IMG/VR virus record: IMGVR_UViG_3300049455_000065
Location: 1-30,486 of that record
Strand: one strand, 5' to 3'
Length of the DNA stretch: 30,486 nt
Source: a virus
Taxonomy: Duplodnaviria; Caudoviricetes
Below, piece after piece: positions 760 through 30,486 of the stretch (its first letter is position 1; each line of letters begins with the position of its first letter). A program made the position numbers and the translations under genes. Under the pieces are notes generated by a model. That model saw nothing but the letters and a program-made list of their open reading frames with translations. It was not told the origin of the DNA and did not search any database.

Positions 760-1206
760 TTAGGAAGTTTGCCTATCAATGTAACCTATCCTTTTCTTTA
801 GCCAATCAACTGCTGTTCCAGCCGCAATAAGAAAGTTGTGATGGTTAAAACATATCAGATAATCAGTTGTAGCATTTGTTAGGTAAAATTCGAAACCAGT
901 ACATTCCGAAAGAACCGGAACAAGCTGTGAGCCATCGTCAAATTTAAAAATGGCGATTTCATCCTGTTTATTAAAGAACATTAATACCTCGGCGTTCATA
1001 ACGAAATCACTGACCCAACGCCAAGCGTCAGGATTTTGAACCGCAACTTTGTCTGTCAAACCTTCCCATATCCATCTTGGCTTATCATGAACGAATTTCA
1101 GAAATATCTGTCTTCTGATTTCCTGTTGTTCTTCTGGTGCCAACTCAGAAATTGAAGCATTCGTTAGTTTTGTTACTTCAATAATTTCATTGCGGATGTA
1201 GCCCAT
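760..1206 (-). CDS. Putative cognate immunity protein (DUF6756-like), 148 aa
   Basis: Small, visibly AT-rich gene 20 nt after the toxin stop, with its own RBS (AGGAG). Motifs W.WE and FEFYL....DYLICFNHHNFLI. Confidence 0.68.
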   Translation of the reverse strand: MGYIRNEIIEVTKLTNASISELAPEEQQEIRRQIFLKFVHDKPRWIWEGLTDKVAVQNPDAWRWVSDFVMNAEVLMFFNKQDEIAIFKFDDGSQLVPVLSECTGFEFYLTNATTDYLICFNHHNFLIAAGTAVDWLKKRIGYIDRQTS

Positions 1207-1226
1207 AATTCTAATCTCCTACTCTC

Positions 1227-4200
1227 TTATCTATTGTAAGGCACATCATCAAGGAGGATATGGCCCCTTTTAGCTCCTCCCTTGCCCCTCTTGCCCGGTG
1301 TTTGCCAACCAACATGGGCTACATCGGGACCTTCTTTTTCATGTGGGAAGTCAATACTTACCTCAGCGCCGTCAGGTGATTGATATTCCACAGCATGAGA
1401 TTTACCCAATCTGTCTTTACCATATTTGGTGATCTTAAAATTAACTTTCGGAACACCTGTTTTCTGGAAGGCTAATTCCAATGCTTCTTCAAGGGTTTTA
1501 CCAGTACCCTGCCACCGAATATTCTCAGTGGATCCCTCTGGCTCATATCTCACTGGTATAGCGAAGTCTCTACCAATAGCAGTAAGCATAGCACTCAGTT
1601 CATTCAGGCCCTCACTGAAAATCTCTTTACGCTTATCTTTGGGAGCCTTCTTCACCTCGGATATAATCACTATTTTCCTTTTTAGAATCTCTCCGAACCG
1701 ACCGTCCAATTCCTCAGCTCGCTCTCCAGAATCGATGTCACGGAAGTGCTGTACATACTCTTTACGCAATCTATCGATTTTTTTGTCGAGATCATCGAAA
1801 CCATCACTGGCCATGAGTATAACAATATGCTCACCCTCTACGTGACCTCTTAAGGTATGGGGGTCTTGTCCAAGCTTCGCAGATTTATCTATATCTCCCT
1901 CCGGAGTACTTACAGCCTCACTTGGTTTTTCCTTATCGCCGTTTTTCCCCTTCCCAAACAACTTCCCAATGCCCTTCACAACTTTATCAATCAGCTTATC
2001 CACCGCCTTATCCACCGTATCCTGAATCTTCTTGATCGTCTCCTTGATTTTCTCCGCAATGCCTGTCAGATGTAGGAAGCGGACAAAGAATCGAATCATG
2101 ATCTTGATAGCTTTAGCCAGGGCATTTTCTATCGAGCTGGCAGCGCCGCTGATATCGCCAGTAGCAATCTTATATACCGAATTGATGATGGATTCTACTA
2201 AGTCCAATATATCATTGATACGCTCGATGAAGAACATCACTGTATCGTAGATTGCCATGATCGCCCCGATGATCGCTCCCACCGGATTAAACATGAGAAC
2301 GAGCTTTTTGATAGCCGCTCTGATGATTCCCTCAACCACCCAGTCCAGGATGGCCTTGATAATCATCTCTTTGAGGTTGCCAAGGAACTCTTTGATCTGC
2401 TCCCACATTGCAGCAGGACCACCCTTGATAAGTGCTGAGATGAATTGCCAGGCTTTTTCAAGCAGCGCGACGTTGCGTTCGCCGATGAGTTTGACGGCTT
2501 TGGCACGGATACGATCATAGGTTAGCCCAAGGACTTGTAGTACCAGTTTTAGAATCGAGCCAAGCGAGAAATCGGAGGGAATCTCAATCCCTGCCTCTCC
2601 CAGTGAGCCAAAGAGCCAGTCCATCAGGCCTTTTTCTAGATGCTTCAGGATGTTGCGTGAGAACTGTAGTACGCCCTGTTTGATTGCGTCGATGAGGTAT
2701 CCCAAGAATCTAATCGGGTGGGCCACGATCAGCATGATCGTGTCTTTGCCCTTCTTGATCATGGATGAGATACGCTCTTTGAACTCGCGCAGGATCTTGA
2801 TTATCTCGCCAAGCTTTTCTATGAATTTAGTAACAAGGCCCTTGTTCTCCTCCTGCATCTTCTTGAGTTGCTCATTCGCCTTGTCGGTTGCCTCTTTGTA
2901 GCGTTGCGCCAGTTTCTGGGCCAGGGCATTTTTCTTTTCATCTATCCCCTTGCTCAGTTCCTCAAAGCGACCGGCAACCTCTTTTTCCGCCGCTTTACCC
3001 ACCGCTTGCAGATCTTTGGGGAGGCTCTTCACATAGTCACTGATACGCGTTTGCCCCTTCGCGATCTCGTCTTTGGCCTCTTTCAGACGTGTCTCGACAA
3101 CTTTGGCTATGTTGACTACAAGCGTATCGAGTTCCTCCGTGAAGATTTTACGACCATTTTCGTAAAACACATTCACCTCGTCAGGCATACCAAAGAGCTT
3201 ATCGCTCGCCCATAACAATCCACCATCCCAGCCACCGTAGCGGTCGTCCTTGTAGGCATCCATCTTCTGGTCGATGTAACTCTTCATTTTCGTCATGGCG
3301 TCTTCGATGCCTTTGTCGAACATGCTTGATACATCGTTCTCCAGGCTTGCGAGCTTGGTTTCGACTGTCTGTTTGGTCTCGCTATAGATTTTTTCGATGG
3401 TGTCGGTAACTTCTTTGCGACGAGCCTCATCCTTTTGTTTGGCGGTGAGTTGCTTTAGTTTAACCGCTGGCCCGGCCTTGCCCTTCTCATGCTGCAATGC
3501 GGTCAATCCCTGCTTCTCATCGCTTACTGCCCTGGCGGCTTCCTGTGCGAGTGTCTTTTGTTCTGTACTCCTAAACTCTTTGGGAGCGCTATCCGCTTGC
3601 TTTGCGACGGAGGACTTCGCTGTGAGAACTGCACTGAAACGTGGGTCATTGGCCTCCTGCAATTGGCCAGGTGTCACTTCTGCATCTGTGAGTTGTTGAT
3701 CAGTATCCTGCTTGCTTTGTTGTAATGAGACTTCGCTCTCAAGCTTTGGCTCTGGTACTGCCTCTGCTGCTCCTACTGCCGGGGGAGTTGGGGGCACGTC
3801 TTCGGTTGGGAGCGGCGTGACTGCTTTCCCTTCAACTTTGCCTGGATCAGGTGCCTGACTGGATGCCGTCTTGATCTCGCCACTGGCATCTTCTTTCTGT
3901 TGGTTGACATTGCCAGTCATAGTACCTTTGAGCGTTTGTGGCTGATCGCCCTGCATAAAGTTTTCAGTGTCGCCGAGAGTTTTGGGCATGATCTTGGCGA
4001 TTTCGGCGCGTAGCAGAGTGAGAAAACTATCGGCTTCCGGCTTTTTGCCCTTCGCCGATTGCATGGTGTCTACTTGATTGGCCTGTGCGCCTGCCAGCTT
4101 TTCGTTAGCTGGTGGCAATGCGGCTGCCTGTGCCTCTGCGGCTTTGCGTTGGGGGGAGGGATGCCGTTTGGTTTGGACGGCGCTTTGTTGCAGTTTGCCC

Positions 4201-4517
4201 ATCACCTTCTGGAAGCGCGGGTCCTTTGCCGCCTTGGGATCTTTCAATGTAATGGCTGGTCCGGCTGATGAGGAGGCCAGTAAGGATGGGGGCATTTGGA
4301 CGCGGGTTGGGGCAACGGCTGCCCCAGAGGCTCGTGCGGGTCCTGGACTCCTTCGCGCTGCTTGGGACGATCGGATCGGTGATCCTGGACTCCTGCGTAC
4401 TGCATGGGGCAATCGGGCAGTGGCACGCGCTGGCCCTGGACTCCCTGGTGTCGCCTGAGACGGTCGAGCCGTGGAGGCGGTAGGAGCCGGGCGAGTGCGC
4501 GGCGCAGTCATTGCCAT
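1227..4517 (-). CDS. Polymorphic toxin / CIS effector with probable nuclease tip (Ntox47-like), 1096 aa
   Basis: GGGAGG RBS. Low-complexity N-terminus, long helical/coiled-coil middle, hydrophobic helix (LVLMFNPVGAIIGAIMAIY), and a ~100-aa tip WQGTGKT..AF.KTGVPK..F.ITKYGKD..GKS..VEY...GAEV.ID..H..GPD..HVGWQTPGK..GHILLDDVPYNR recalled as polymorphic toxin type 47. Confidence 0.78.
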   Translation of the reverse strand: MAMTAPRTRPAPTASTARPSQATPGSPGPARATARLPHAVRRSPGSPIRSSQAARRSPGPARASGAAVAPTRVQMPPSLLASSSAGPAITLKDPKAAKDPRFQKVMGKLQQSAVQTKRHPSPQRKAAEAQAAALPPANEKLAGAQANQVDTMQSAKGKKPEADSFLTLLRAEIAKIMPKTLGDTENFMQGDQPQTLKGTMTGNVNQQKEDASGEIKTASSQAPDPGKVEGKAVTPLPTEDVPPTPPAVGAAEAVPEPKLESEVSLQQSKQDTDQQLTDAEVTPGQLQEANDPRFSAVLTAKSSVAKQADSAPKEFRSTEQKTLAQEAARAVSDEKQGLTALQHEKGKAGPAVKLKQLTAKQKDEARRKEVTDTIEKIYSETKQTVETKLASLENDVSSMFDKGIEDAMTKMKSYIDQKMDAYKDDRYGGWDGGLLWASDKLFGMPDEVNVFYENGRKIFTEELDTLVVNIAKVVETRLKEAKDEIAKGQTRISDYVKSLPKDLQAVGKAAEKEVAGRFEELSKGIDEKKNALAQKLAQRYKEATDKANEQLKKMQEENKGLVTKFIEKLGEIIKILREFKERISSMIKKGKDTIMLIVAHPIRFLGYLIDAIKQGVLQFSRNILKHLEKGLMDWLFGSLGEAGIEIPSDFSLGSILKLVLQVLGLTYDRIRAKAVKLIGERNVALLEKAWQFISALIKGGPAAMWEQIKEFLGNLKEMIIKAILDWVVEGIIRAAIKKLVLMFNPVGAIIGAIMAIYDTVMFFIERINDILDLVESIINSVYKIATGDISGAASSIENALAKAIKIMIRFFVRFLHLTGIAEKIKETIKKIQDTVDKAVDKLIDKVVKGIGKLFGKGKNGDKEKPSEAVSTPEGDIDKSAKLGQDPHTLRGHVEGEHIVILMASDGFDDLDKKIDRLRKEYVQHFRDIDSGERAEELDGRFGEILKRKIVIISEVKKAPKDKRKEIFSEGLNELSAMLTAIGRDFAIPVRYEPEGSTENIRWQGTGKTLEEALELAFQKTGVPKVNFKITKYGKDRLGKSHAVEYQSPDGAEVSIDFPHEKEGPDVAHVGWQTPGKRGKGGAKRGHILLDDVPYNR

Positions 4518-4523
4518 TGCGTT

Positions 4524-6629
4524 TTACCTCCCGCTGCCGTTCAATGTTGCCGTATAGTTGTGGCGCAGTGGGCAGATGCCACCCAGTTTGCGATATTCGC
4601 GCTGAACCGCTTCTTCGAGATGCTGGGAGGTCATTATTCCTTCGTCATGAAGTGACAAGAGAGATGCATGCAGAACGGCATTGCGAATTTGTCCACCAGT
4701 GAGTATGCACCTTGCAGCAACCTCTCTGAGCAACGCTGGTTCAATGCTGTGCTGTTTCGGCAAATGGAGTTGCCAGATGGCCCAACGTTCAGTCGCTTCC
4801 GGTGGGCGAAATTCAACCACAATATCCATTCGGCGCTGGAAGGCGCTATCGATGCGGTCGTTGGCATTGGTGGTAACGATCAGGATACCCTCAAATTCTT
4901 CCAGGCGTTGGAGTAAGTAGTTCGTCTCCAGATTGGCATAGCGATCATTCGAGGTTTGCACATTGGTACGCTGAGTCAGTAATGCATCTCCCTCATCAAG
5001 CAGCAGAATGACATCCATCTCTTCAGCACGCGCAAAGATCTGGTTGAGGCTCTTCTCTGTCTCGCCGATGTATTTATTGATGACAGATGAAAGATCTAGC
5101 TTATACATGTCCATTTGGAGTACTGAGGCGAGCAGACGGGCGGCCAGGGTCTTGCCTGTACCACTTGGCCCACTTAGAAGAGCGCGTACACCTTTATTGA
5201 GTTGTATGCTGAGTGCAGCACCAACGGCAGTATGCAAGTGTTCGCGATAGCGGCACCTCTCTTCAAGATGCGAGAGTTCGCGTAACGTCTCTGCGTTGAC
5301 CGCGAGCAAAGACCAATCGCCTGTAGTTTTTACGTGCGTGGCAAGGGTTTCAAGTACCTGCCGATTGAGAGAGCGACTGGCTTGTTGTACATCCTGTAAT
5401 GTGACGGTGGTATGTCCCGCTAAACTCGCGTAGGATTGTGCAAGATGTGCCACACGTCGAATATTGCCGCTCGTCAAACACAGGCGTTCGCTGATCTCTG
5501 CTAGATCTGAAGAAGCATGAGTGCATAGGCTGTGTTGCCAGTGATGACGACGTGCTGCAATCGTTGGCATATCAATGGTTAGAGTCAACATGCGTTCGGT
5601 TCCTGGACCATGCACGCCACCTTGCTTGCCCAAAATAAGTCCAAGCGGCCCCATATATCCGTGCAAAGTTGGTAAGTCCAGGGTTTCGCCTGGGGCAAGG
5701 TCGAGCACAATGACTGGGAGGGCATGGAGTATGGTGGAGAGAGGTCCTATGAACCGCCAACGCTCGTCATCGCTCTTACTTAATCCAACCACTTCTAGTA
5801 AACCACGCTCAAGCTTGTAAGCAATAGCCCCCAGAATAGTACGTCTCCCATTATGCAGTGGACCACGTAGAGCAAGAGCCTGGACTTCACCGTTTGCTAG
5901 TAATGGTGGTAACGTAGTGCATGCATGCTGGACGGTCTCATCGATTACCAATGCTTCGATAGGCAATAATTGTGCAGGTGGACGATAACGCAGCCATGAC
6001 TCCTGCACCCGTGGCGTGTCCTCACGCAGGACATCCCAGAGTAGACCCGGAATCTGTAATGCCCACTCGATACGCGGGCTGTCAGGATTGACAACGGAGA
6101 CGAGGCCCAAGTCTTGCAATTGGTGCAACATAGCGCGTATGTTTGTGCAGTCGGCAGGTTCACGCCACCACGCATGTAGCAGACCAAGCGTTGGGCGGTG
6201 CTGACCCACCAGTCCATGTACAGCTTCAAACAGCAGGCCAAAGCGTGCGTCCTCTTCACTCAATCCAATACTCATAAGCAAAACGAGCGATGTATAATCA
6301 AGTTCAGCTCTATCGCATAAGGCACGTAGCGGGAGATGAGTTGTGATATCTTTTTCCCAGCCACATACCGCGTCACGCCAATCTTGCTCTGCATCCATCT
6401 GGTCTGTTCCCTCCAGACCATAGCTCATCAGTTCATTATGGTAGGCGATGAGGAACGGAAACTGCTCGAAGAGGGCTTCTTGCGTCTCGAAAGATTGCGC
6501 GACCTGCTCCAGTAGGTGCAATACAGCTGCATAGAAATAGAGCTTAAAGTGCTCTGCCGCTGTCATTGGAAGTTGTGCAAATGGATTTTCTTGCAAAACG
6601 TATTGCTCCTGTGTTAGAAGAATGTTCAA
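4524..6629 (-). CDS. AAA+ ATPase (Afp15-like), 701 aa
   Basis: Walker A GPSGTGKT, Walker B ILLLDEGD, DLSSVINKYIGETEK, DRYANLETNYLLQRLE, IDSAFQRR, LTGGQIRN. A degenerate first AAA module (GPLHNGRRT) lies upstream. The TTG start is uncertain. Confidence 0.95.
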   Translation of the reverse strand: MNILLTQEQYVLQENPFAQLPMTAAEHFKLYFYAAVLHLLEQVAQSFETQEALFEQFPFLIAYHNELMSYGLEGTDQMDAEQDWRDAVCGWEKDITTHLPLRALCDRAELDYTSLVLLMSIGLSEEDARFGLLFEAVHGLVGQHRPTLGLLHAWWREPADCTNIRAMLHQLQDLGLVSVVNPDSPRIEWALQIPGLLWDVLREDTPRVQESWLRYRPPAQLLPIEALVIDETVQHACTTLPPLLANGEVQALALRGPLHNGRRTILGAIAYKLERGLLEVVGLSKSDDERWRFIGPLSTILHALPVIVLDLAPGETLDLPTLHGYMGPLGLILGKQGGVHGPGTERMLTLTIDMPTIAARRHHWQHSLCTHASSDLAEISERLCLTSGNIRRVAHLAQSYASLAGHTTVTLQDVQQASRSLNRQVLETLATHVKTTGDWSLLAVNAETLRELSHLEERCRYREHLHTAVGAALSIQLNKGVRALLSGPSGTGKTLAARLLASVLQMDMYKLDLSSVINKYIGETEKSLNQIFARAEEMDVILLLDEGDALLTQRTNVQTSNDRYANLETNYLLQRLEEFEGILIVTTNANDRIDSAFQRRMDIVVEFRPPEATERWAIWQLHLPKQHSIEPALLREVAARCILTGGQIRNAVLHASLLSLHDEGIMTSQHLEEAVQREYRKLGGICPLRHNYTATLNGSGR

Positions 6630-8449: not shown

Positions 8450-8469
8450 GCACATCCTTCTCTCAACCA

Positions 8470-13214: not shown

Positions 13215-13237
13215 GTTCTCTACTCCAATTAGTCTCA

Positions 13238-14671: not shown

Positions 14672-14702
14672 TTTGTGTTTCTCCTCTTGCATATGGTGCT
14701 AT

Positions 14703-20350: not shown

Positions 20351-20368
20351 CGTCAACCTCTTTGTTGT

Positions 20369-22781: not shown

Positions 22782-23840
22782 TTATGGTCTGCCAAGACCG
22801 GGACGTTCGGCAGTAAACTCACTACGAATACCATTCGCGCCATCAAAAAGGTGTTTGACTTCCGAGACATAATATTTGCCATTGAACAATGGGCCGAGTC
22901 CATCCAGGTCAATGGTATTGCCAACACGCAACTGGCTGGTCGTCTCGGCGATACCATGTCCTGTCACAAAGCGGCGTGCGCTGAGCTTAAAGTAGGCTTC
23001 CGCGATAGCCTGGGCCTCCTGTCCTGTCAGGGGAGCCGTATGTACTAGCGATTCCTTGCGTTGCCCAAGTGCGGAAGAGAGGACGCTCGCTCCGCTCAAG
23101 CCGCCATTTAACTCGCCGTTGATGATCGAATCGGTTGCCTCGTGCTGCAACCCACTTTTACTCGTGACATCCCAACCATTGACGGTCACGCCCGTGCGCT
23201 GCATCGCCAGGTCTGCCAGTACGGAGAACTCGCGCAGGTCTTTTCCATAGCTCATCTTCAATGCCCCATGTGCTCGATTGGTGCGGGGTTGCGCGTGCAA
23301 GGTACTGCCTTCCATCCATACCTCTGCGTCAATAGCGCGGGCGCGTTCACGTAGAAAGGCGAGGTCGCTCTGATTCACCTGGGCCAGTACTTTGTATTTC
23401 GGGCCGTGTACATCAACGCTGGGGCTTAATCCGTGTTCGTTAGCGATCTGTTTGATGACATCGGCATCGCTCACATCGCCAAAGGTGCGTGTACGGCGCG
23501 TCATACGCAAGTCTTGAAAGCGGTCCTCAATGAGTAATGTGAGCGCGGGTGGGCTGCCCTGTGGAAATTGACCTTCGAGACCCATGATGCGCCCGTTGAA
23601 CAGCACGTCAGTGCCGAGTTTGACCTGCATGGTTTTGCCGAAGTCGAGCAGACTGCGGTCAAAGTACAGGAATTCAATGCTCTTGTTTTTGTTGCCCCAG
23701 TTGCCAAACACGGCCTCGCAGCAATACAACCCATGCGTATCTTCCGCGATGAGCATGCTGAGCAGTCGTTGTGCTAGTTCTGGCTCGTCACGTCCAGCAA
23801 TAGTGATGATTGGGCGAGCAATTCTGACAGTGTTATCCAT
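22782..23840 (-). CDS. Baseplate hub, phage late control D / VgrG N-terminal (gp27-like) protein, 352 aa
   Basis: LFNGRIMGLEGQF, EDRFQDLRMTRRTRTF, QVNQSDLAFLRERA, V.VNGWD, LRVGNTIDLDGLG..FNGKYYVSEVKHLF. Confidence 0.92.
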   Translation of the reverse strand: MDNTVRIARPIITIAGRDEPELAQRLLSMLIAEDTHGLYCCEAVFGNWGNKNKSIEFLYFDRSLLDFGKTMQVKLGTDVLFNGRIMGLEGQFPQGSPPALTLLIEDRFQDLRMTRRTRTFGDVSDADVIKQIANEHGLSPSVDVHGPKYKVLAQVNQSDLAFLRERARAIDAEVWMEGSTLHAQPRTNRAHGALKMSYGKDLREFSVLADLAMQRTGVTVNGWDVTSKSGLQHEATDSIINGELNGGLSGASVLSSALGQRKESLVHTAPLTGQEAQAIAEAYFKLSARRFVTGHGIAETTSQLRVGNTIDLDGLGPLFNGKYYVSEVKHLFDGANGIRSEFTAERPGLGRP

Positions 23841-23863: not shown

Positions 23864-24037
23864 TTAATGGGCACGCATGCGTGCAAGACGGTGCATATGC
23901 TGTCGCACAACTCGATGAATATCATGTGCCGTAGAAGGCTGTTGTGGCTTCTGAGACTCGTCGGTGGGAGTCCCTAACGGTTTTGCGGCTGGTGGTGGCT
24001 CCGCGACAACCTCGAATTCGTTAATAATGACGGCCAT
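23864..24037 (-). CDS. Small CIS-associated protein (possible Afp6-like), 57 aa
   Basis: ATG at 24037 preceded by GAAGGGAG; MAVIINEFEVV...RLARMRAH. Fills the gap between the tube initiator and hub genes. The Afp6 analogy is from size, the M.V.I.E start and context only. Confidence 0.65.
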   Translation of the reverse strand: MAVIINEFEVVAEPPPAAKPLGTPTDESQKPQQPSTAHDIHRVVRQHMHRLARMRAH

Positions 24038-24068: not shown

Positions 24069-24806
24069 CTAGCGGTTAGAAACCGAGACATTCATGTCGA
24101 TAAGCTGTCCTGGCGTAAGGATTCGAGGATTCTCAATGCCATTAGCGGCTGCGATGCCTTGCCAATCGCCCCCCTTACCTAAGCTCGCAGCGAGATTGGG
24201 CAAATTGGTATTCGCGAGAGCTGGTGTGAGTGGGCTGGTCCCAGGAGAGGGCAATGCGAGACCGCCACCACCGGATCCAGCTCGTCCTGCTGTTGGACGA
24301 ATCACAAACTCCTGTATCTTCTGCTGTGAGAGGCTCAGATTCATACTAGCGCGTAGCGGTCTGCCATCGTTGGAAAAGAACTCAAGCGACTCGTCCAGTG
24401 AATCCATCAGGCCATCAAATTGAAATGACCCCCACACAAAGCGAATGGCTGGTGGGATGAATGTATTAGAGCCGGGTGGATCCTGCTTGGGTGTGATAAA
24501 GTATGCCACGCGTTGTGTCAGCTTGCGCACATCATCCACTGTTGGATGATCGTCAGGCTGTGGTACGGTAATGTCAAACCAGATTTGTAGTGACAGTTTG
24601 GTTGTGCCAGCACCGACAAACTGGCGTGGCGCCGGACCCGTTTTGTCGCCACCTCCATCAGGCGAGACAAGCTGGTTGGCAAAGGTCACTTTCAAGGTTT
24701 CCGGATTGAACTGCACCTTGGTCCATTTCTCTTTGTTTTTCTCGTTTTTGAAATCTGCGTCCATTTCTCGCAGTTCTGCTTTCTCTGGTTTGGTCACATC
24801 TGTCAT
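24069..24806 (-). CDS. CIS tube initiator with C-terminal LysM-like domain (Afp7-like), 245 aa
   Basis: VQFNPETL, LSLQIWFD, PPAIRFVWGSFQF.G, ESLEFFS.DGRPLRA, and a LysM-type end WQGIAAANGIENPRILTPGQLI. Confidence 0.9.
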   Translation of the reverse strand: MTDVTKPEKAELREMDADFKNEKNKEKWTKVQFNPETLKVTFANQLVSPDGGGDKTGPAPRQFVGAGTTKLSLQIWFDITVPQPDDHPTVDDVRKLTQRVAYFITPKQDPPGSNTFIPPAIRFVWGSFQFDGLMDSLDESLEFFSNDGRPLRASMNLSLSQQKIQEFVIRPTAGRAGSGGGGLALPSPGTSPLTPALANTNLPNLAASLGKGGDWQGIAAANGIENPRILTPGQLIDMNVSVSNR

Positions 24807-24817: not shown

Positions 24818-25315
24818 TTACAATCCAACATTCATATTGAGGCCAATACCCGAACCCAGGCTGGGTTGCTTGAATGAAAGAGACTCATACACAAGCTGCA
24901 ATTCTTCAATGGCAATCACTCCATCTTTGGCATTTAATGCAGGAGCCTTCAGTTTGGTAGGCAGACAGCGTCGAAGCAGGAAGCGAGCGCGTTCTGTCTG
25001 CCCATCGCCTGCGAAGAGCACAACTTCTGCGTCGGCGCGTAGCCCTATTTTATCTGGTAATAGCATGGTGCTAAACCAGGTCCACAGGTCGAATGAGTCG
25101 GTCATGCCGCGTTTTAAGGTCAGTTGACCATAGCTCAGTGGCCCCGTCAAGCGAATCTGTTGACCATTGTTGCCGCCCTCGCGAATCGTCTTGACTTCCA
25201 TTGTCATCTCAAGCCCATCGCATTCAGAGAATGCAGCACTGCATATCTGAGGCGAGATGCCAGGGATGTTGATTTCGACCGCGAAGTTAAACGCAGTAAA
25301 TGGATAATTCGGCAT
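24818..25315 (-). CDS. Tail tube protein 2 (Afp5-like, gp19 family), about 165 aa
   Basis: YPFTAFNFAVEI, AAFSECDGLEM, IREGGNN, LTLKRGMT, PALNA, AIEELQLVYE. Start moved to the ATG at 25315 (GGAAGGA upstream), which removes the overlap with sheath 2. Confidence 0.93.
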   Translation of the reverse strand: MPNYPFTAFNFAVEINIPGISPQICSAAFSECDGLEMTMEVKTIREGGNNGQQIRLTGPLSYGQLTLKRGMTDSFDLWTWFSTMLLPDKIGLRADAEVVLFAGDGQTERARFLLRRCLPTKLKAPALNAKDGVIAIEELQLVYESLSFKQPSLGSGIGLNMNVGL

Positions 25316-25322
25316 GGCGTAC

Positions 25323-27929
25323 TTATCCTTCCGTAACCAAAGCGCGATCATTGGATTGTAGTAAACGTACCGTTAGAAAGGTGAGCGGCAGCGATGGCGC
25401 GACCTTTAACTCGACGATGAAACGTCCCTGATCAATGCTTTGCGGCGTATTCAGATAACTTTTGGTCACGACCTGAAACGCCTCGCTCGCTGTATTGCCT
25501 GCGAGGGCACCGCGAATAAAGAGTTGCTCAAGCATAGCCTCGAAACCGCGCTGTACCTGGCGGCGGAATGCGCCATTGTTTGGCTCAAAGACATAGTCTG
25601 CTCCCAGGCGTAAGGCGAGCCGCCGTAGGAGTATCAAGAGCCGCCGAACGTTGATTGATCGCAATTCCGTGTCGTCGCTCAGTGTATCAGCACTCAAATA
25701 AAGGAATCCGCGCGGCTCCTGGTGAATGATATTCAGCTGGGCTTCTTGCAGGTCGAGCCAGCGTTCGCGAGCAAGTGGCGGGTATAACGCCACAATGTTA
25801 CTCATCACCTCATTCGCAGGCGCAATCCAGGCGCCACGGTTGAGTGCTCGCTGTGCCATGATACCAGCAGCTGCGCCATCAGGTGGAGTTTGGCGCAGCA
25901 TGTCCAACTGACTATTTTCACGTCCAATCAGCCAGGGATGGTAGAGCGAACCAAAGCTGAATGCGCGAGCTTCATCGAGACCTGACAAGCCAACATCCAC
26001 TGCTCTCACAGATGTTTCAGGCGAAAAGGACGATTTTAGCTGCAAAACGTGCGTTAGAGCGGCATCTTCCCGATAATGCGCTGGTAAGACCATGACCGCG
26101 AAGATATCACCACGAGCGCCACACAACCGCAAAAGCGCCCTCTGCACCTGGAGTATTGGTTTCTCAGTCGGTAGTGTGTCGTATTGTTCGGATGTGTTGT
26201 ATTGCCATTGTACAGCCGGGGCAACACGTACAACGACTCCATTGGACCAATCGCTTACAATACCTTCGATTTGGGCATTGACGCGATAATAGTAGTCACG
26301 AGGGCTACGATCATAGAGGGTGTGTGAAGTATCAAGACCAGAATAGATCACGGCGGCTCCCGCAAAATCAGGGCTGGTAGACTCTTGCAGCGTATAGCGA
26401 ACTGTCTGCTGGGCTGTGCCAACTGCCTTCCAGGAGAGCGCATAGCTGCTTGGCTGTATCTTTGGTTGTGGTTGCGTCAACGTTGGCGCAGAAGTAACAG
26501 GTACAACGGCACAGTTCTGAAATGTCGGTGCTGGCAATTGTGCTGTTGGTGGCTGCGGTTTTGGCGCTGGTGGGTCCTGTGGGTCTCCTCCGTCATAAAT
26601 CGAAGTCCAGCCGCGCTGCACCGCATCAGGCACGGCTATAATGGTTGCCTCCTCGATACCAAGCGCCGCGTGGATACCCTGAAGCGGACGCGGCAACGGA
26701 CGTTGATAGCGAATGAAATCTGCGATTGCCAGCAAATTCTCTGTGCTCACTCCTTCAATCATGTCATGATCGAGAAAGAGGCTGCTTTCAAACTGCGCCA
26801 ATCCATCGCGATCAAGAGCCGTCTCAGGCCGGGGCGTAGCGGAGCCGGGCACAGGAATAGTGGGCCGCTGTTCCGCACTTTGAAAAGCTTTATAGAAGCT
26901 GTCGAGCGAGAAAAGCTGCAGATCCGCCGGGAGATAGTAATATGTACCAGTATCCCAGCCCGCTAGTGGAAAGTTCGCAGCTGTCGCTTCCTGCCAGAAT
27001 GCCGCAAAGCTGTTCTCGATAGGAACGCCCGAATCCGCATATACCTGCTCGTCTGTCGGCAGAGCGCCCGCGAAGCGTGGGTGCTGCGGATTGAAGCCAA
27101 GATTGCCGAGACGAGTAAAGCTGCCATCCGCAAAGCGCACCCAAAGCTCAAACGATACGACAGCCCCCTGCGCCTGCACATTCGTCGACGGCGCGGGCAC
27201 AGTATCAGCGAGTATGGATTGCAATGAGAGCGGCTGCTTGAAGAGAAAGAGCCTGTGCGCTGCCAAGGTATAAACCTGAGTCTTAGAAAAGACTGGCATG
27301 GCCGGAGTACGAGTCACGCTGTCGATGAGCGCAAAAAGGATATAGTCACTTTTTTTAAAGGTATAGGTTAATTGTAAGAGACGCCCCGGCTCGACGGCGA
27401 AATCGGAGGTCAGTGTCAGCGACAGGCTGGTTTTATCATCGGCGAATCTGAGGTCGCTGACAGCGGCAGTCTCGCTGATCAAGGCTGCATTGACCTGTAG
27501 ACCATCGGACCAGCTACCCGCCGAACGGGCCTGAATGAGCGCCGGGCGAATATCCCACTGCTTGCCTTGCTCAATCCATTGCAAGCGTACCATACCGGGA
27601 ATGGAGAAGAGATTGTAGACAGCGAGCGCGCTTGCTACGCGAATAATCCAACAGCGGCGCCCACCGTTTCGGAAGAAGGCACGAACCGCAGGAGCAAGAT
27701 AGGCGTAGATGACCTCGCCTTGCTGTTCGTCCCAGGCCAGCGGCAGATCATCACCAAAGATGGCGGTAAAATGGATAACGTCCTCTACCGCAACCGGAAT
27801 GTGCAACGGCCCAGACGTGGCAAAGCCGACGAAGACCGCCACGTCCATGCGCGGCAGCACATCAGTGAGCGGCGGCGGTTGCACCTCAAAGCGGATTCCG
27901 GCTAGGCGTCGTGACGTTTGTATACCCAT
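25323..27929 (-). CDS. Second, enlarged tail sheath-family protein with Pro-rich and FN3-like insertion, 868 aa
   Basis: Sheath N-terminal motifs (DVAVFVGFATSGP, YLAPAVRAFFRNGGRRCWIIRV) and C-terminal motifs (LYHPWL, PPDGAAAG, WIAPAN, INVRRL, YVFEPN, GRFIVELKVAP), with internal insertions. Confidence 0.9.
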   Translation of the reverse strand: MGIQTSRRLAGIRFEVQPPPLTDVLPRMDVAVFVGFATSGPLHIPVAVEDVIHFTAIFGDDLPLAWDEQQGEVIYAYLAPAVRAFFRNGGRRCWIIRVASALAVYNLFSIPGMVRLQWIEQGKQWDIRPALIQARSAGSWSDGLQVNAALISETAAVSDLRFADDKTSLSLTLTSDFAVEPGRLLQLTYTFKKSDYILFALIDSVTRTPAMPVFSKTQVYTLAAHRLFLFKQPLSLQSILADTVPAPSTNVQAQGAVVSFELWVRFADGSFTRLGNLGFNPQHPRFAGALPTDEQVYADSGVPIENSFAAFWQEATAANFPLAGWDTGTYYYLPADLQLFSLDSFYKAFQSAEQRPTIPVPGSATPRPETALDRDGLAQFESSLFLDHDMIEGVSTENLLAIADFIRYQRPLPRPLQGIHAALGIEEATIIAVPDAVQRGWTSIYDGGDPQDPPAPKPQPPTAQLPAPTFQNCAVVPVTSAPTLTQPQPKIQPSSYALSWKAVGTAQQTVRYTLQESTSPDFAGAAVIYSGLDTSHTLYDRSPRDYYYRVNAQIEGIVSDWSNGVVVRVAPAVQWQYNTSEQYDTLPTEKPILQVQRALLRLCGARGDIFAVMVLPAHYREDAALTHVLQLKSSFSPETSVRAVDVGLSGLDEARAFSFGSLYHPWLIGRENSQLDMLRQTPPDGAAAGIMAQRALNRGAWIAPANEVMSNIVALYPPLARERWLDLQEAQLNIIHQEPRGFLYLSADTLSDDTELRSINVRRLLILLRRLALRLGADYVFEPNNGAFRRQVQRGFEAMLEQLFIRGALAGNTASEAFQVVTKSYLNTPQSIDQGRFIVELKVAPSLPLTFLTVRLLQSNDRALVTEG

Positions 27930-27932
27930 TGC

Positions 27933-28385
27933 TTATGCCATCTCCAGGCGTTCGTACGCTAATACTAACTCTTCCATTGCCACAACGTTACCCACTGCAT
28001 TCAAAGGGCCACTGGTGTGCTTGATAATGCGGGCACGCAGCAGTTTCCATTCCAGGACGACATCGGTATGATTCTCGTTCTGTAGCTGTATGACGACAGT
28101 ACGATAGGCACTCTGATCGCCATTACGAATCTGGTCGAGCCATTTGTACAGGTTGAGCGAGCCAATGACACCGCGTTTGAGCGTCACGTCGGTTGATTTG
28201 TTCATACCAGTGATCTTCATGACGCTATTCTCTTTGGCGTTGCCGTTGCGATACTCGGAAACCGTCACCTCCATGCCAATACCGCTACATTCCTGGAACC
28301 CCGCCTCCGGTCCATCGGTGCTGCCTGTACCCAGGTCCACCAGGAAGTTGAATTGTACATAGGGGCGTTCGCGTAAAACTGCCAT
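27933..28385 (-). CDS. Tail tube protein 1 (Afp1-like, T4 gp19 family), 150 aa
   Basis: PYVQFNFLVD, AGFQECSGIGME, EYRNGN, VTLKRGV, W.DQI, GP-LNA, AMEELVLAYE. Strong RBS (AAGGAGG) upstream; directly follows the sheath gene. Confidence 0.95.
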   Translation of the reverse strand: MAVLRERPYVQFNFLVDLGTGSTDGPEAGFQECSGIGMEVTVSEYRNGNAKENSVMKITGMNKSTDVTLKRGVIGSLNLYKWLDQIRNGDQSAYRTVVIQLQNENHTDVVLEWKLLRARIIKHTSGPLNAVGNVVAMEELVLAYERLEMA

Positions 28386-28425
28386 GTATTCCTCCTTTGG
28401 CTTCAGATGAGTCCCGCGCTTATAG

Positions 28426-30486
28426 TTAGCCTCGGCGGTCCCCTGTCCATTGTCCGATGCGGAAAATCACAAACTCGGCGGGTCGCAGCGGCGCAACGCC
28501 GATGAGACAAACGAGACGCCCATTATCAAGGTCGTTTTGAGTCATGGTTGAACGATCACAACGAACGAAGTAGGATGTTTCTGGTTTGTCGCCGAGTAAC
28601 GCTCCCGCTTGCCACTCATTGAGAAGGAAATCTTCGATTGTACGGCGCACATTTGCCCACAGCGCTGGCCCGTTCGGCTCAAAGACAGCAAACTGTGTCC
28701 CTCGGTCAATAGAGTGTTCGAGATAGGCAAAGTAGCGACGCAGGTTGACATACTTCCATTCAGGATCAGAACTGATCGTGCGTGCGCCCCAGAGCCTGTA
28801 GCCGCGCCCCTCAAAGAAGCGGAAGCAGTTAATTCCCTCCGGATTAAGTACCTCTTGTTGACTCTTGTTGAGCATCACCTCAAAACCAAGAGCCAGGTTC
28901 ACCACCTCATTGGCAGGTGCTTTGTAGACAGCACGGGTAATGTCGTTACGAGCATAGATGCCTGCTACGAATCCGCTTGGCGGCAAGTTAATCTCCACAC
29001 GTGTCACCGGGTCGAGAATGCGCACCCAGGGGTAGTAGAGCGCGGCATATTTCGAGTCGAATTTCGCACGCATAGCACGTGCCTGTGAAATTGATAAGTT
29101 ATCGCCACTGTCTAGCACTGCAATGCGATAGCGCATGTATTCGGCATGGGCGATAAGGAGACTAATAATCGTGTTTGCATCGTCTGTCCGTAAGGCTGAG
29201 GAAATGTAGTTTGCTGTAGAGCCAGGTGCTGCAACAATTGAGATGTCATCAATGTCCTCGAATGCTTTCAGACCTGTTTTCGTGGTTTTCGAAGGATCTG
29301 CCACCCCTTCATACTCTCCGGCGCCGGGTTGAAGACCATCGTTCCCCCCCACAAGGTCGACGACTACAGGAGACGGGTCGGCTGCTTTCGGATCGGTGAT
29401 GCCTGTGAGCACGTTGGATGGAAACAACGTTTGTAACACGTCTAGCCCATTGGCAATTTTATCGCCTATCAAAAAGACGATAGGCAGGGTGCGTGCTTGC
29501 GCAAGACTTGCCGGCACATTCGCGAAGTAATCAAACAGTGAGTCGAGCTGGTCGTTGCGTTTGTGCTCAAAATCGGGGGCGAGACCACTCCATACAAGTG
29601 ATGTACCATCGCTTTGTATAGCTGTGACGGTCAGTGTAACAACACGTACACTATCGGTTGAAGGATCAAGACCTTTGCCGTCGTCAGTGTTAAGTCGCAA
29701 GTCCTTGTTAGCAGGATCGCTGTCTTTTTGTTTCGCTTTGCCAAAACGCCACGTGTTTTCGGCTGTGTCGAATGTGGCGATGTAGAACCCACTCACTTTT
29801 GTAGGATTCGCTCCTGTTCCCGTTACCTGATTAATCCACACAATTTCATTGTTGAGCAGGCTTGGAGTGCTTGCTCTATCAGTTGTTGTTGCTGTAGTTC
29901 TCTTTTTGCCACCGAGAACGTTTTGGCCCAGATGGAGCGTAAAGAGGATACGCATATTGCCAGCATCACCGGGGAAGCGGGCGCGAATCTGAATGAGCTT
30001 GTCACTGTCCGCAGGTGGTGTTGCGCTTGCGCCAAGGAGTGCACGTGCGTGCCCATCTTCGTATACAGTAAGCCCCCCTGCTGTTGCTTTAGGGCCATTC
30101 TTTTCGATAGTGGCAGCAGGATAGCTATAGGCAGCAGCATTACTCTTGCCGGCGTCGATAGTTTTATCAGTAGCAAGAACAAATGGCTTGAAGGTACGCA
30201 TACAGTAAAGCCGTTTGCCACCTTCCTCAAAGAATGCGCGTACGGCATGCCATAGGAAGTTGTGCGAGACAGTAGTGGCGGCACTACCGACATACTGTAA
30301 CTGCTTGCGGTCTCCGTAGGCCAGTTCAAATTCACCAAGACTGGTGATAACATCGGGTACTATGTCGATGGGACCAAAGCGAGTTGGACCTATAAACCCT
30401 GTTGTGGTGGTGCTCACGCCTTCAATCGATTTAGAACGGAATGAGACCTCTTCAACATAGACGCCAGGGGCAAGATATTCAGGCAT
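28426..30486 (-). CDS. Contractile tail sheath protein 1 (Afp2/3/4-like, T4 gp18 family), 686 aa
   Basis: N-terminus MPEYLAPGVYVEEVSFRSKSIEGVST. Sheath core motifs YAALYYPW, PPSGFVAGIYARND, KAPANEVV, LNPEGINCFR, LWGARTIS..WKYVNLRR, VFEPN, GVAPLRPAEFVIFRI. The ATG is the last codon of the window. Confidence 0.96.
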   Translation of the reverse strand: MPEYLAPGVYVEEVSFRSKSIEGVSTTTTGFIGPTRFGPIDIVPDVITSLGEFELAYGDRKQLQYVGSAATTVSHNFLWHAVRAFFEEGGKRLYCMRTFKPFVLATDKTIDAGKSNAAAYSYPAATIEKNGPKATAGGLTVYEDGHARALLGASATPPADSDKLIQIRARFPGDAGNMRILFTLHLGQNVLGGKKRTTATTTDRASTPSLLNNEIVWINQVTGTGANPTKVSGFYIATFDTAENTWRFGKAKQKDSDPANKDLRLNTDDGKGLDPSTDSVRVVTLTVTAIQSDGTSLVWSGLAPDFEHKRNDQLDSLFDYFANVPASLAQARTLPIVFLIGDKIANGLDVLQTLFPSNVLTGITDPKAADPSPVVVDLVGGNDGLQPGAGEYEGVADPSKTTKTGLKAFEDIDDISIVAAPGSTANYISSALRTDDANTIISLLIAHAEYMRYRIAVLDSGDNLSISQARAMRAKFDSKYAALYYPWVRILDPVTRVEINLPPSGFVAGIYARNDITRAVYKAPANEVVNLALGFEVMLNKSQQEVLNPEGINCFRFFEGRGYRLWGARTISSDPEWKYVNLRRYFAYLEHSIDRGTQFAVFEPNGPALWANVRRTIEDFLLNEWQAGALLGDKPETSYFVRCDRSTMTQNDLDNGRLVCLIGVAPLRPAEFVIFRIGQWTGDRRG

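Follow-up and report, generated by a model that had tools for sequence, protein, structure and literature searches.

Subtype IIb of the contractile injection systems (CISs) is defined in dbeCIS (Chen et al. 2019) by the lack of PAAR, a split VgrG, a single gpJ, divergent Afp12/13, and Afp6, and the published description adds extra subtype-specific genes without known domains (PMC6899500). Listed members include Myxococcus xanthus DK1622, M. fulvus HW-1 and Sorangium cellulosum So0157-2 (PMC6899500 supplement). Already catalogued, IIb is experimentally uncharacterised in the literature that we found, which holds no experimental work on any IIb system. The nearest solved system belongs to subtype IId. 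This is the cytoplasmic CIS-Sc of Streptomyces coelicolor (PDB 9GTP/9GTS), for whose firing the membrane protein CisA, encoded in the cluster, is required (PMC12237407). CisA consists of a disordered N-terminal part, a transmembrane (TM) segment and a folded C-terminal domain on the outside, and its gene follows the baseplate genes. In the Anabaena tCIS, the baseplate-bound Cis13 anchors the particle by a C-terminal TM helix, and Cis6 forms a trimer that plugs the spike cavity (PMC8894136).

Several kinds of cargo are also relevant. DUF4157-linked eCIS toxins combine an N-terminal marker, a very long linker and a C-terminal toxin, and immunity genes near some eCIS loci have been taken as a sign of antibacterial use (Geller et al. 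2021, PMC8213781). Sle1/Sle2-type effectors (Nagakubo et al. 2026) are helix-rich, tape-measure-related proteins with hydrophobic helices and diverse C-terminal domains. They are reported from IId-type clusters of Actinobacteria, upstream of the sheath and beside a small DUF4157 partner; in one tested case the functional domain is a toxin directed at nucleic acids and an immunity gene follows downstream, and their deletion in Streptomyces gave particles without apparent defects (PMC13277306). Both eCIS toxin-immunity pairs and tape-measure-related effectors with swappable ends are, in these two reports, already in print. The Salmonella effector Rhs2-SciX (Zhang et al. 2012; preprint 10.64898/2026.05.10.723254) bears an Ntox47 domain, a predicted BECR-fold RNase, is toxic in E. 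coli and is neutralised by the adjacent gene.

Gene content and subtype

The window, by which we mean the whole 30,486-nt stretch of IMGVR_UViG_3300049455_000065, carries 21 genes, all on the minus strand, that form an Afp/PVC-type CIS cluster. Sheath, tube, tube initiator, VgrG-like spike, gp25 and baseplate J are all found in this one co-oriented cluster (ORF map, Pfam/NCBIfam), as an earlier note on this DNA had described. Its figure of about 20 genes has to be raised to 21, with the addition of a 57-aa gene that it did not list. Its limit of about 75 nt on the gaps holds only since this gene fills the sole large space, and an ambiguous toxin start can again leave 228 nt. The sheath and tube genes are as follows.

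28426..30486, minus strand: sheath protein 1, 686 aa, complete (Phage_sheath_1 E 2e-21; sheath C-term 4e-13)
27933..28385, minus strand: inner tube protein 1, 150 aa (Phage_T4_gp19 E 1e-33; CIS5_fam 1e-20; CIS1_fam 3e-6)
25323..27929, minus strand: sheath protein 2, 868 aa (Phage_sheath_1C E 3e-6, residues 752-855; syntenic in relatives)
24818..25351, minus strand: tube protein 2 or tube adaptor, 177 aa as the longest ORF (Phage_T4_gp19 E 2e-32; CIS5_fam 2e-16)
24069..24806, minus strand: tube initiator, Afp7/Cis7-like, 245 aa (CIS_tube PF19266 E 7e-26)

Sheath protein 1 begins with MPEYLAPGVYVEE, and its best solved relative is the S. coelicolor CIS sheath (8bky/9gtp, E 3e-106). Sheath protein 2 has a large insertion ahead of its conserved C-terminal part, and the true length of tube protein 2 is likely 165 aa, from an ATG at 25315. 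The C-terminus of the initiator looks LysM-like by eye.

The order sheath-tube-sheath-tube-initiator-gpD-gpV-p548-gp25-gpJ-Cis12-fibre pair is kept in 67/67 loci, these being the loci recovered with the alignment of p548, a 548-aa protein encoded behind the spike; the conservation asked about in the earlier note, from the spike to the fibre pair, is part of this order. The 67 loci carry 11 phylum labels (Myxococcota, Acidobacteriota, Chloroflexota, Actinomycetota, Pseudomonadota, Gemmatimonadota, Deinococcota, Rhodothermota and others) and include the genera Myxococcus and Sorangium. The cluster type is found in many soil bacteria.

The window has the traits of IIb: no afp10/PAAR, a split VgrG, a single afp11, Cis12 and fibre-like genes and a small gene in the afp6 position. 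No core difference from dbeCIS IIb was found, and we assign the locus to that subtype by gene content and shared genera rather than by a tree with dbeCIS references. The clade around the window differs in adding a propeller to the protein p906 and in carrying an Ntox47/DUF6756 pair. The earlier proposal of a distinct new subtype does not stand, as the combination of traits is that of the published IIb definition (PMC6899500), whereas its description of the system as uncharacterised does: we found no experimental work on IIb or on the p548 family in the literature. The locus is a known kind of system with an interesting and unexplained core component, p548.

Split spike and absence of PAAR

The spike is encoded by two genes, preceded by a small conserved gene.

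23864..24037, minus strand: conserved 57-aa gene (ORF; GAAGGGAG upstream of the ATG)
22782..23840, minus strand: spike hub half of the split VgrG, gpD/gp27-like, 352 aa (Phage_GPD E 1e-8)
22020..22736, minus strand: spike needle half of the split VgrG, gpV/gp5-like, 238 aa (Phage_base_V E 1e-25)

The two products match consecutive parts of the VgrG_rel profile, gpD at positions 104-347 (E 1e-23) and gpV at positions 370-546 (E 8e-38), and gpD is an ORF of its own in 54/54 relatives, in which the VgrG is likewise split. The final 30 residues of gpV are nearly invariant across phyla in an alignment of the C-termini of 58 relatives. A six-frame search of the window at E<=1 gave no match to PAAR_motif (PF05488), in agreement with the absence of PAAR noted earlier.

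The 57-aa gene occupies the 228-nt space between initiator and gpD and has no Pfam match. An ORF of 51-62 aa with the pattern M[AP]V[VI]INEFEV...RVRAH lies at the same place in nearly all related loci that have both neighbours. By size and position it probably corresponds to the IIb 'spike plug' Afp6/Cis6; within lineage II, afp6 is reported from IIb only (PMC6899500).

Effector and predicted immunity pair

The 3' end of the cluster holds an effector and a small gene behind it.

1227..4517, minus strand: polymorphic effector, a tape-measure-related carrier (residues ~75-850) with a swappable C-terminal module (Ntox47, residues 998-1096, E 1e-29)
760..1206, minus strand: predicted cognate immunity protein imm148, DUF6756, 148 aa (DUF6756 E 1e-11; 20 nt after the toxin)

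The effector starts either at 4517 or at Met75 (4295), the gap to the preceding AAA+ ATPase gene being 228 nt in the second case. Its C-terminal end matches Ntox47 (PF15540) with 103.3 bits against a curated cut-off of 25, and shares the motifs IDFPHEKE, HVGWQ and GHILL with a copy borne by an Rhs protein; it is a predicted RNase. The carrier matches PHROG tape-measure families (phrog_5493, E 5e-9 over residues 490-867; two more at 9e-5 and 2e-4) and has at least 972 homologues. Nuclease-toxin ends are present on 21 of the best 120 of these relatives (PF13930 on 12, PF15604 on five, PF15541 on two, PF18431 on one and PF15540, the window's own family, on one), which makes five nuclease domains among the relatives listed. 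Relatives that are 94-100% identical up to residue ~850 are less than 30% identical beyond it, and the C-terminal ~230 residues are exchanged between near-identical relatives along with the downstream gene. The genes have the make-up of a polymorphic toxin system: a conserved N-terminal and central part, unrelated C-terminal toxin domains and, directly downstream, an immunity gene exchanged together with the toxin end.

An imm148-like ORF is missing from three carrier relatives whose ends differ (L080, L082 and L085); unrelated small ORFs stand downstream where the toxin end differs, among them a YbjN-like ORF in L082. Conversely, an unrelated Rhs/PT-HINT/Ntox47 toxin, whose toxin domain is 49% identical to that of the window, has a DUF6756-like gene (34% identity, E 6e-15) 4 nt behind it. 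No sequence link of imm148 to any solved chain was found. The toxin-immunity pair proposed in the earlier note is real and points to bacterial targets. Delivery of Rhs2-SciX, which shares the toxin domain, is by an Rhs protein via the T6SS, unlike that expected here.

In 3/5 genomes searched (Myxococcus, Sorangium and Roseithermus), the cluster includes a carrier homologue on the downstream side of the AAA+ gene; the other two gave no match and a weak match elsewhere, respectively, in a stricter first look in which a miss does not amount to absence. The Roseithermus homologue bears an eCIS_core/DUF4157 domain (E 1e-23), whereas the carrier of the window has no DUF4157/eCIS_core match at E<=0.01. 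The carrier resembles the Sle1/Sle2 effectors in build, but it is encoded behind the AAA+ gene, at the 3' end, has no separate DUF4157 gene in the window and occurs in many phyla. From its likeness to phage tape-measure proteins and to Sle1-type effectors, it would ride in the tube lumen; both this location and a role in killing are suggested by analogy.

Baseplate, candidate target-binding proteins and ATPase

The genes between p548 and the effector encode baseplate components, fibre-like proteins and accessory proteins.

19955..20356, minus strand: gp25/TssE-like baseplate wedge protein, 133 aa (GPW_gp25 E 5e-23)
17637..19949, minus strand: baseplate J, Afp11/Cis11-like, 770 aa, single copy (TIGR02243 E 2e-71)
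14703..17633, minus strand: gpI, Afp12/Cis12-like baseplate protein, 976 aa (CIS12_fam E 2e-38; Tail_P2_I 8e-9)
13238..14692, minus strand: fibre-like protein 1, 484 aa (CIS13_fam, weak, E 0.0046; syntenic in relatives)
11793..13241, minus strand: fibre-like protein 2 (f482), 482 aa (N-terminal paralogue of fibre-like protein 1; syntenic)
11266..11766, minus strand: small variable protein, 227 aa by the longest ORF, to 11949 (ATG with AAAGGAGGA)
8470..11190, minus strand: p906, candidate target-binding protein (cluster-associated N-terminal part 5-440; propeller 576-906)
6626..8470, minus strand: p614, conserved, with homologues just upstream of the AAA+ gene
4524..6629, minus strand: Afp15-type AAA+ ATPase, 701 aa (AAA PF00004 E 3e-26, residues 484-608)

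The sole solved relative of gpJ is the S. coelicolor Cis11 (9gtp_1K, E 4e-32), and the Cis12-like protein has a long N-terminal extension. The two fibre-like proteins have an N-terminal region of ~80 aa in common (BLASTP, 33% over 79 aa, E 1e-5); their assignment as afp13-like is made from position and one weak match (E 0.0046). Apart from one weak segment in f482, they have no hydrophobic segment above the threshold. The small variable protein is likely 166 aa long, from the ATG with AAAGGAGGA; it matched no family and has a homologue in 1/67 loci (L055). The stop codon of p614 overlaps the start of the AAA+ gene, and p614 homologues lie upstream of that gene in Myxococcus, Sorangium, Roseithermus and L080; no match was found in the families scanned (Pfam, NCBIfam and PHROG). 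Syntenic homologues of the ATPase are 45-67% identical; by its likeness to Afp15/Pvc15, it would help in assembly or loading.

The N-terminal part of p906 is 27% identical to a Myxococcus cluster gene, and its C-terminal part consists of six repeats of ~54 aa. An AF2 model of the latter (pLDDT 90.8, pTM 0.90) has 24 strands in the six repeats, that is, a six-bladed beta-propeller. At least 641 homologues of the propeller were found, on secreted-type enzymes. Neither p906 nor its C-terminal part matches the PLL-like lectin family (PF26607/DUF346), even at E<=10. Precomputed PF26607 tags occur on 16 of the best 120 of the at least 641 relatives, and 0/5 retested relatives reproduced the tag at E<=0.01; the Atlas neighbours of the propeller include PLL-tagged clusters, with TM 0.5-0.6 by row. 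The propeller that the earlier note saw is thus confidently modelled, but its lectin-like character lacks a PLL lectin match in Pfam, and sugar binding is putative. Together, p906 and the two fibre-like proteins would bind the target. Fibre-like genes and a propeller of a type otherwise fused to secreted-type enzymes are more in keeping with a particle that is released and binds a target than with one docked at a membrane, an observation that counts against the proposal set out below.

Proposed mode of action

The best explanation, to which we give a probability of about 60%, is that the locus encodes a PAAR-less, split-spike IIb CIS. Its particle would be loaded with the carrier, the C-terminal Ntox47 RNase domain of which would be expelled into other bacteria, and the DUF6756 gene would protect the producer and its kin. 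Gene content, gene order and its conservation, the modular toxin and the co-swapped downstream gene are observed, and from these we infer the rest.

How such a machine meets a membrane is probably decided by the protein encoded between spike and gp25.

20369..22015, minus strand: p548, 548 aa, tail-anchored (same place in 67/67 loci; family-less)

No match to p548 was found in Pfam, NCBIfam, PHROG or PDB sequences, and none of its at least 783 homologues has an assigned name. The hydrophobic-tailed protein that the earlier note had placed after the spike is borne out: its one hydrophobic segment spans residues 497-546, with a mean Kyte-Doolittle value of up to 3.18, and the N-terminus has no signal peptide-like hydrophobic stretch. 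The protein is laid out as an N-terminal beta domain, a helical domain, an amphipathic pre-TM helix, a TM segment (499-526) and an aromatic tail; in the AF2 model (pLDDT 71.7), a long C-terminal helix at 500-539 has a pLDDT of ~85. Conservation peaks in the TM segment (72.6% identity to 30 distant homologues, against 62% before the TM and 28% in the helical domain).

From its gene position, p548 would sit at the centre of spike and baseplate, with its large N-terminal part in the producer cytoplasm and the C-terminal helix in a membrane. We prefer, at slightly under even odds, to see p548 as a membrane dock or gate, by which the baseplate would be held against the cytoplasmic membrane of the producer, on the inner side; from there, particles may fire or be released. 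Membrane-linked CISs have precedents in CisA (PMC12237407), a haloarchaeal anchor and the tCIS, where the C-terminal helix of Cis13 anchors the particle (PMC8894136) and offers a model for a baseplate dock; the tCIS anchor is, however, fibre-like, a PAAR-like Cis10 is present and the subtype is different. The conservation of the TM segment, above that of every other part of the protein, is atypical of a passive anchor and counts against the docking function.

TM-domain-bearing T6SS effectors have been proposed as translocators. By comparison, p548 may be a particle component at or around the spike tip that replaces the PAAR cap and, once the particle has fired, would insert its hydrophobic C-terminus in the target membrane and so aid the passage of the nuclease into the cytoplasm, a reading that we regard as not very likely. 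It would agree with the position of the p548 gene, which adjoins the needle gene in every locus and starts 4 nt after it, with IIb being uniquely PAAR-less, and with the nearly invariant needle end, as for a conserved contact surface. The conservation of the TM segment suits a specific membrane-active role, and nuclease toxins have to get across the cytoplasmic membrane of the target. Among structural neighbours of the p548 model, the N-domain of a Bacteroides T6SS effector and its spike-bound cargo complex rank highest, but their Z-scores (6.5 and 6.4) are within the tool's range for models without a true match, and the rows below them are generic Ig-like domains. Moreover, in a soluble particle the hydrophobic tail of 45 residues would have to be shielded, and there is no evident chaperone gene.

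A broader reading, and an unlikely one, sees in p548 a new class of CIS membrane component that spans phyla and would form an oligomeric gate on the PAAR-less spike, as an exit port or a prey translocon. In the first form, monoderm and diderm bacteria alike would have a T6SS-like machine docked at the envelope, with the near-invariant TM segment as its exit port; in the second, the segment would be a translocon placed in the prey membrane that lets the carrier's nuclease end reach the cytoplasm. Subtype IIb would then represent a fourth mode of action, alongside released eCISs, the T6SS and cytoplasmic/thylakoid CISs.

That the system is intracellular, with cytoplasmic particles firing at the producer's own membrane under stress, p548 in the place of CisA and the toxin serving regulated death or differentiation, is improbable. 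In sheath and gpJ, Afp, PVC, tCIS and AlgoCIS are all far more distant than the S. coelicolor CIS (for the sheath, E ~1e-47 as compared with 3e-106; gpJ matches only 9gtp), the Streptomyces CIS requires a membrane protein for firing, and related CISs of Chloroflexota and Deinococcota are described as cytoplasmic (PMC12998442). However, IId systems have a single VgrG ORF, PAAR and no fibres, and CIS-Sc has no tape-measure gene. The immunity gene, the polymorphic nuclease ends and the fibre-like and propeller proteins point to other cells as the target. CisA also differs from p548 in build and gene position: a CisA-type identity was rejected, as the N-terminal part of p548 is folded, its TM segment is C-terminal with ~20 residues after it and its gene lies between gpV and gp25. 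The work of the nearest solved relative inside its producer's cytoplasm is an observation against the best explanation, that of a CIS fired into other bacteria.

Flanks and provirus label

IMG/VR calls the record a "provirus", and phage-tail families occur throughout, but a defective prophage tail region is hardly credible given the estimated completeness of 23%, the CIS hallmarks of the cluster (AAA+ ATPase, CIS_tube, CIS5/CIS12 and the 3' toxin-immunity pair) and the flanks of its relatives. Capsid, portal, terminase and TssJ/L/M families matched none of the 20 ORFs scanned (Pfam/NCBIfam, PHROG), in keeping with the earlier note. The record boundary coincides exactly with the start codon of sheath protein 1, the ATG being the final codon of the record, no cap gene lies in the window, and flanking DNA was seen in relatives only. 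In three complete or large relative genomes, no head genes were found within the 13-19 kb examined on either side of the cluster. A Pvc16_N cap gene lies two genes upstream of sheath protein 1 in 2/3 of them (E 2e-27 and 4e-34), and the upstream DNA of the third matched no family; glycosyl- and methyl-transferases follow downstream in 3/3. As far as these relatives show, the Afp/PVC/MAC-type core described earlier is not a prophage tail.

The window itself ends in a trace of this downstream flank.

388..750, minus strand: truncated cluster-linked glycosyltransferase remnant, 120 aa (Glycos_transf_2 E 1e-18)

Its product shares 70% identity with the N-terminal 98 aa of a GT2-methyltransferase-GT2 protein of 746 aa at the equivalent position in L082, and 56-68% with proteins of ~760-790 aa in three genomes.

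Gene content of the window

The window belongs to subtype IIb of the catalogued contractile injection systems (CISs), as judged from its gene content and the genera that share it, and its cluster is real and apparently complete except for a missing 5′ end. Every gene of interest lies on the minus strand.

Genes of interest in the window (fs, identified by family scan)
Starts at 30486, minus: sheath1, 686 aa (fs)
Minus: tube1, 150 aa (fs)
25323–27929, minus: sheath2, a longer second sheath, 868 aa (fs)
Minus: tube2 or adaptor, 177 aa (fs)
Minus: tube initiator (CIS_tube)
Minus: gpD, gp27-like hub half of the spike, 352 aa (fs)
Minus: gpV, gp5-like needle half of the spike, 238 aa (fs)
20369–22015, minus: p548, 548 aa, without family
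Minus: gp25 (fs)
Minus: gpJ, baseplate J, 770 aa (fs)
Minus: Cis12, gpI-like, 976 aa (fs)
Minus: f484 and f482, fibre-like pair, 484 and 482 aa
Minus: p227, small variable protein
Minus: p906 (906 aa) and p614 (614 aa, 6626–8470), without families
Minus: AAA+ ATPase (fs)
Minus: effector carrier with Ntox47 at its end, 1096 aa (fs)
Minus: imm148, DUF6756 protein, predicted immunity (fs)
388–750, minus: glycosyltransferase (GT2) fragment, 120 aa

Family scans returned no matches in the window to capsid, portal, terminase, PAAR or TssJLM families, and a six-frame scan for PAAR_motif was empty at E ≤ 1, in agreement with an earlier note on this DNA that had found PAAR, capsid, portal and TssJLM genes missing. 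PHROGs gave no match for p548, f484, f482, p227, p906, p614, imm148 or the initiator. The same note gave gaps of at most ~75 nt, which is correct, barring the uncertain toxin start, once a gene that it overlooked is counted. The initiator–gpD interval of 228 nt is the only long stretch that seems non-coding, and it holds a 57-aa ORF (23864–24037) preceded by a good ribosome-binding site. A counterpart of 51–62 aa occupies this interval in nearly all related loci with an initiator and gpD; these ORFs begin with the same strand-like motif, continue through a disordered middle and end in a basic helix. By size and place, the gene likely encodes the Afp6/Cis6 protein, which in the cyanobacterial tCIS is a trimer plugging the spike cavity (PMC8894136).

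Sheath2 has a long insertion, and its residues about 480–560 look fibronectin-III-type by eye, with no Pfam match at E ≤ 0.01; such a segment would decorate the sheath surface. p614, whose stop overlaps the start of the AAA+ gene, contains a low-complexity stretch in which a unit of ~20 aa is duplicated (around residues 340–400), and weakly hydrophobic segments at 422–440 and 449–467. Its position is that of afp14 in Afp, which makes p614 a second candidate for a role in length determination or loading. The start of a further ORF, rich in Ser/Thr/Pro/Asn, lies at 3–182 (minus) and continues past the record's low end.

Gene order and subtype

At least 783 homologues of p548 were retrieved, all unnamed and without Pfam domains. 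An alignment of 35 p548 homologues located 67 distinct loci in species-representative genomes. The order sheath1–tube1–sheath2–tube2–initiator–gpD–gpV–p548–gp25–gpJ–Cis12–f484–f482 is kept in 67/67 as far as each contig reaches, including the run from the spike through p548, gp25, J and gpI to the fibre pair that the earlier note had singled out. A stop codon separates the hub and needle ORFs in all 54 loci that have both, so the split is ancestral and not a lesion, and a frameshifted VgrG pseudogene is ruled out. In several high-GC relatives (L009, L013, L018, L021, L024, L027, L030 and others), the longest gpV ORF measures 360–565 aa with no in-frame stop before it; as these extended ORFs overlap gpD in another frame, they are most likely an ORF-calling artefact and not a fused spike.

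Chen et al. (2019) divided eCISs into Ia, Ib and IIa–IId. By their definition, IIb is the sole subtype without afp10/PAAR and the sole lineage-II subtype with afp6; its VgrG is split, afp11 occurs once, afp12 and afp13 are divergent, and two or three genes with no recognised domain are particular to it (PMC6899500). M. xanthus DK1622, M. fulvus HW-1 and S. cellulosum So0157-2 are named as IIb members in the supplement. The window agrees with their definition in gene content, the likely Afp6/Cis6 gene standing for afp6, and Myxococcus and Sorangium genomes are present among the 67 loci. The cluster is therefore not the distinct subtype that had been proposed. The accompanying term 'uncharacterised' does hold for IIb: searches of freely available full text found no experimental work on an IIb system or a p548-like protein.

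IIb carries at least 11 phylum labels, mostly of soil and sediment bacteria, predatory myxobacteria included. In a quick maximum-likelihood gpJ tree of 58 rows, 11 phylum labels require at least 18 changes, where 10 would be the minimum, and the window falls among Chloroflexota rows (Ktedonobacteraceae, Chloroflexia) in no supported clade, with a best identity of 58%. Sheath matches to solved systems were strongest for the S. coelicolor CIS (E 3e-106, versus about 1e-47 for Afp3, tCIS, Pvc2 and AlgoCIS), and the only solved match of gpJ was 9gtp_1K (E 4e-32). The nearest solved machine by sequence is the cytoplasmic S. coelicolor CIS, a IId system.

p548 and the PAAR-less spike

p548 is the hydrophobic-tailed protein that the earlier note had placed behind the spike, and indeed it has a single hydrophobic stretch, at 497–546. 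Its AF2 model (35 sequences; pLDDT 71.7, pTM 0.46) consists of a beta-rich domain (5–190 with 405–433), a helical domain (225–376), a poorly modelled linker and a long helix at 500–539 (pLDDT about 85). At 499–526, p548 is 72.6% identical to 30 distant homologues; the figures are 62% for 446–498, 64% for 527–548, 50% for the beta domain and 28% for the helical one. Since there is no N-terminal signal-like segment, p548 would be tail-anchored with its N-terminal part in the producer's cytoplasm.

Comparison of the model with the whole PDB gave a best Z of 6.5 and none at Z ≥ 8, and no known fold was assigned. The top two neighbours, a Bacteroides T6SS effector N-domain and its VgrG-bound cargo complex (Z 6.5 and 6.4), are within noise as the structural comparison tool describes it; Ig-like domains came next. 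The PDB sequence search gave no match for p548, and its Atlas neighbours are unnamed clusters only. Homology to CisA was rejected, as CisA differs from p548 in build and gene position. The haloarchaeal anchor, with six TM segments, is also unlike p548, whereas Cis13 of the tCIS (PMC8894136) has a C-terminal TM helix comparable in principle.

The final 30 residues of gpV hardly vary across 58 relatives, suggesting that the PAAR-less tip has a conserved partner; p548 is the obvious candidate. Among the subtypes, only IIb lacks a PAAR tip, and it always has the family-less, tail-anchored p548 beside the spike. Knowing the role of p548 would show how a large share of environmental injection systems come into contact with a membrane; this protein and, with it, the way in which the subtype as a whole acts are what merits bench work.

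Provirus label and flanking genes

The record spans 30,486 bases, all that is available of its source as a genome, and IMG/VR labels it 'provirus' and puts its completeness at 23%. The proteins of the window are catalogued on a parent contig of 47,248 nt. The N-terminus of sheath1 is MPEYLAPGVYVEE and its start codon is the last codon of the record, which was therefore cut at a gene boundary, as in provirus trimming. The prophage reading is rejected because head genes are absent from the window and from the flanks examined in Sorangium, Myxococcus and Roseithermus. The window is a CIS cluster mistaken for a prophage and cut precisely where the sheath gene starts, with no head, portal, terminase or integrase gene. 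Users of viral collections should be warned that such clusters get filed as 'proviruses'.

Upstream of sheath1, Sorangium and Myxococcus carry a Pvc16_N cap gene plus an unknown gene of ~300 aa; in Roseithermus, neither of the two preceding ORFs matched a family. A BTAD-domain transcriptional activator, a possible cluster regulator, is encoded ~2 kb upstream of sheath1 in Roseithermus (L075 10285–11334). Downstream of f482, these relatives carry a variable gene, a p906-N-like gene (in Myxococcus), p614, the AAA+ gene and the carrier. The f482–p614 slot of a Roseithermus locus (L076 1265–3909) holds an HHH-domain protein and a GT4-type glycosyltransferase, not p227 and p906.

The carrier is followed by a ~760–790-aa methyltransferase/GT2 protein in Myxococcus, Sorangium and Roseithermus (3/3), and a close metagenomic relative has one of 746 aa. 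Large methyltransferase/GT2 proteins follow the toxin–immunity pair at L082 3812–6052, L074 14178–16454, L076 13162–15510 and L077 4474–6849. The 120-aa GT2 ORF of the window is 56–70% identical to the beginning of the GT2 region in the ~760–790-aa and 746-aa proteins and is a truncated N-terminal remnant. The glycosyl/methyl-transferase link with this CIS subtype is conserved and may reflect modification of fibres or sheath.

Putative effector carrier and immunity gene

Residues 490–867 of the carrier resemble three PHROG tape-measure families (E 5e-9, 9e-5 and 2e-4), with hydrophobic helices at 594–612 and 736–765. Residues 380–900 have at least 972 homologues of about 1000–1250 aa; in 21 of the best 120 of these, the end belongs to one of five nuclease-toxin families. 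Compared with 14 homologues, the carrier shows 94–100% (closest) or 45–90% identity over residues ~100–850, and only 0–32% from 851 on, the closest included. Its first ~75 residues are unconserved, so that Met75 is the likelier start, in line with the 1022-aa form on record. In Myxococcus, Sorangium and Roseithermus, three of five genomes in a stricter first search, the carrier gene comes after that for the AAA+ ATPase within the cluster. The Roseithermus copy bears the eCIS_core/DUF4157 marker, associated by Geller et al. (2021; PMC8213781) with eCIS toxins having very long linkers.

This toxin design is of an already published kind. A 2024 paper from the Nagakubo group reportedly treats the same topic, tape-measure-related CIS effectors. 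In Actinobacteria, such effectors have diverse ends, one with an immunity gene, according to Nagakubo (2026; PMC13277306). The carrier and its exchangeable nuclease ends place the design far beyond Actinobacteria, where it has been described so far. Ntox47 is predicted to be an RNase of the BECR fold (Zhang 2012). Its type example is Salmonella Rhs2, for which a preprint reports toxicity in E. coli and neutralisation by the adjacent SciX (10.64898/2026.05.10.723254). The PDB sequence search found no match for the toxin, its last 137 residues or imm148.

The DUF6756 gene begins 20 nt past the toxin. A DUF6756 search of 301 Chloroflexota genomes gave one weak match, so the pairing with Ntox47 was checked in metagenome loci. 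In one of these, an Rhs/PT-HINT/Ntox47 toxin, 49% identical to the carrier in its toxin domain, has 4 nt behind it a gene for a DUF6756-like protein of 178 aa with 34% identity to imm148 (E 6e-15) and a Pfam score of 24.5 bits, below the 27-bit cut-off. A second metagenome fragment has the same pair, so the two count as one independent context. An imm148-like ORF is absent in three carrier relatives with other ends (metagenome loci), and one of the three instead has an Endonuclea_NS_2 end and a YbjN-like gene. Pairing elsewhere and absence beside other ends argue that the toxin end and the downstream gene travel together, consistent with the putative toxin–immunity pair of the earlier note.

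Fibre-like proteins and the predicted p906 propeller

f484 and f482 share an N-terminal region of ~80 aa and keep their position; this, together with one weak CIS13 match, tentatively suggests the label 'fibre'.

The C-terminal part of p906 (residues about 586–906) comprises six ~54-aa repeats and is, in the AF2 model (34 sequences; pLDDT 90.8, pTM 0.90, 24 strands), a six-bladed propeller. At least 641 homologues of this domain were found at 40–70% identity; among the matches listed, they occur on galactose/glyoxal oxidases, astacins, trypsins, DUF4185 proteins, one GH18 and one tyrosinase, the pattern expected of a putative accessory binding module. Of the 'lectin-like propeller' in the earlier note, the predicted fold stands and the link to lectins is thin. 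Atlas structural neighbours point to PLL-type lectins; faint precomputed PLL tags on 16 of the best 120 of the at least 641 relatives failed to reproduce in all five retested. p906 has no match in Pfam or PDB sequences, and a profile of its six blades retrieved nothing from the latter. The full p906 build was seen in only eight close relatives among the matches listed, and the Myxococcus counterpart consists of the N-terminal part only.
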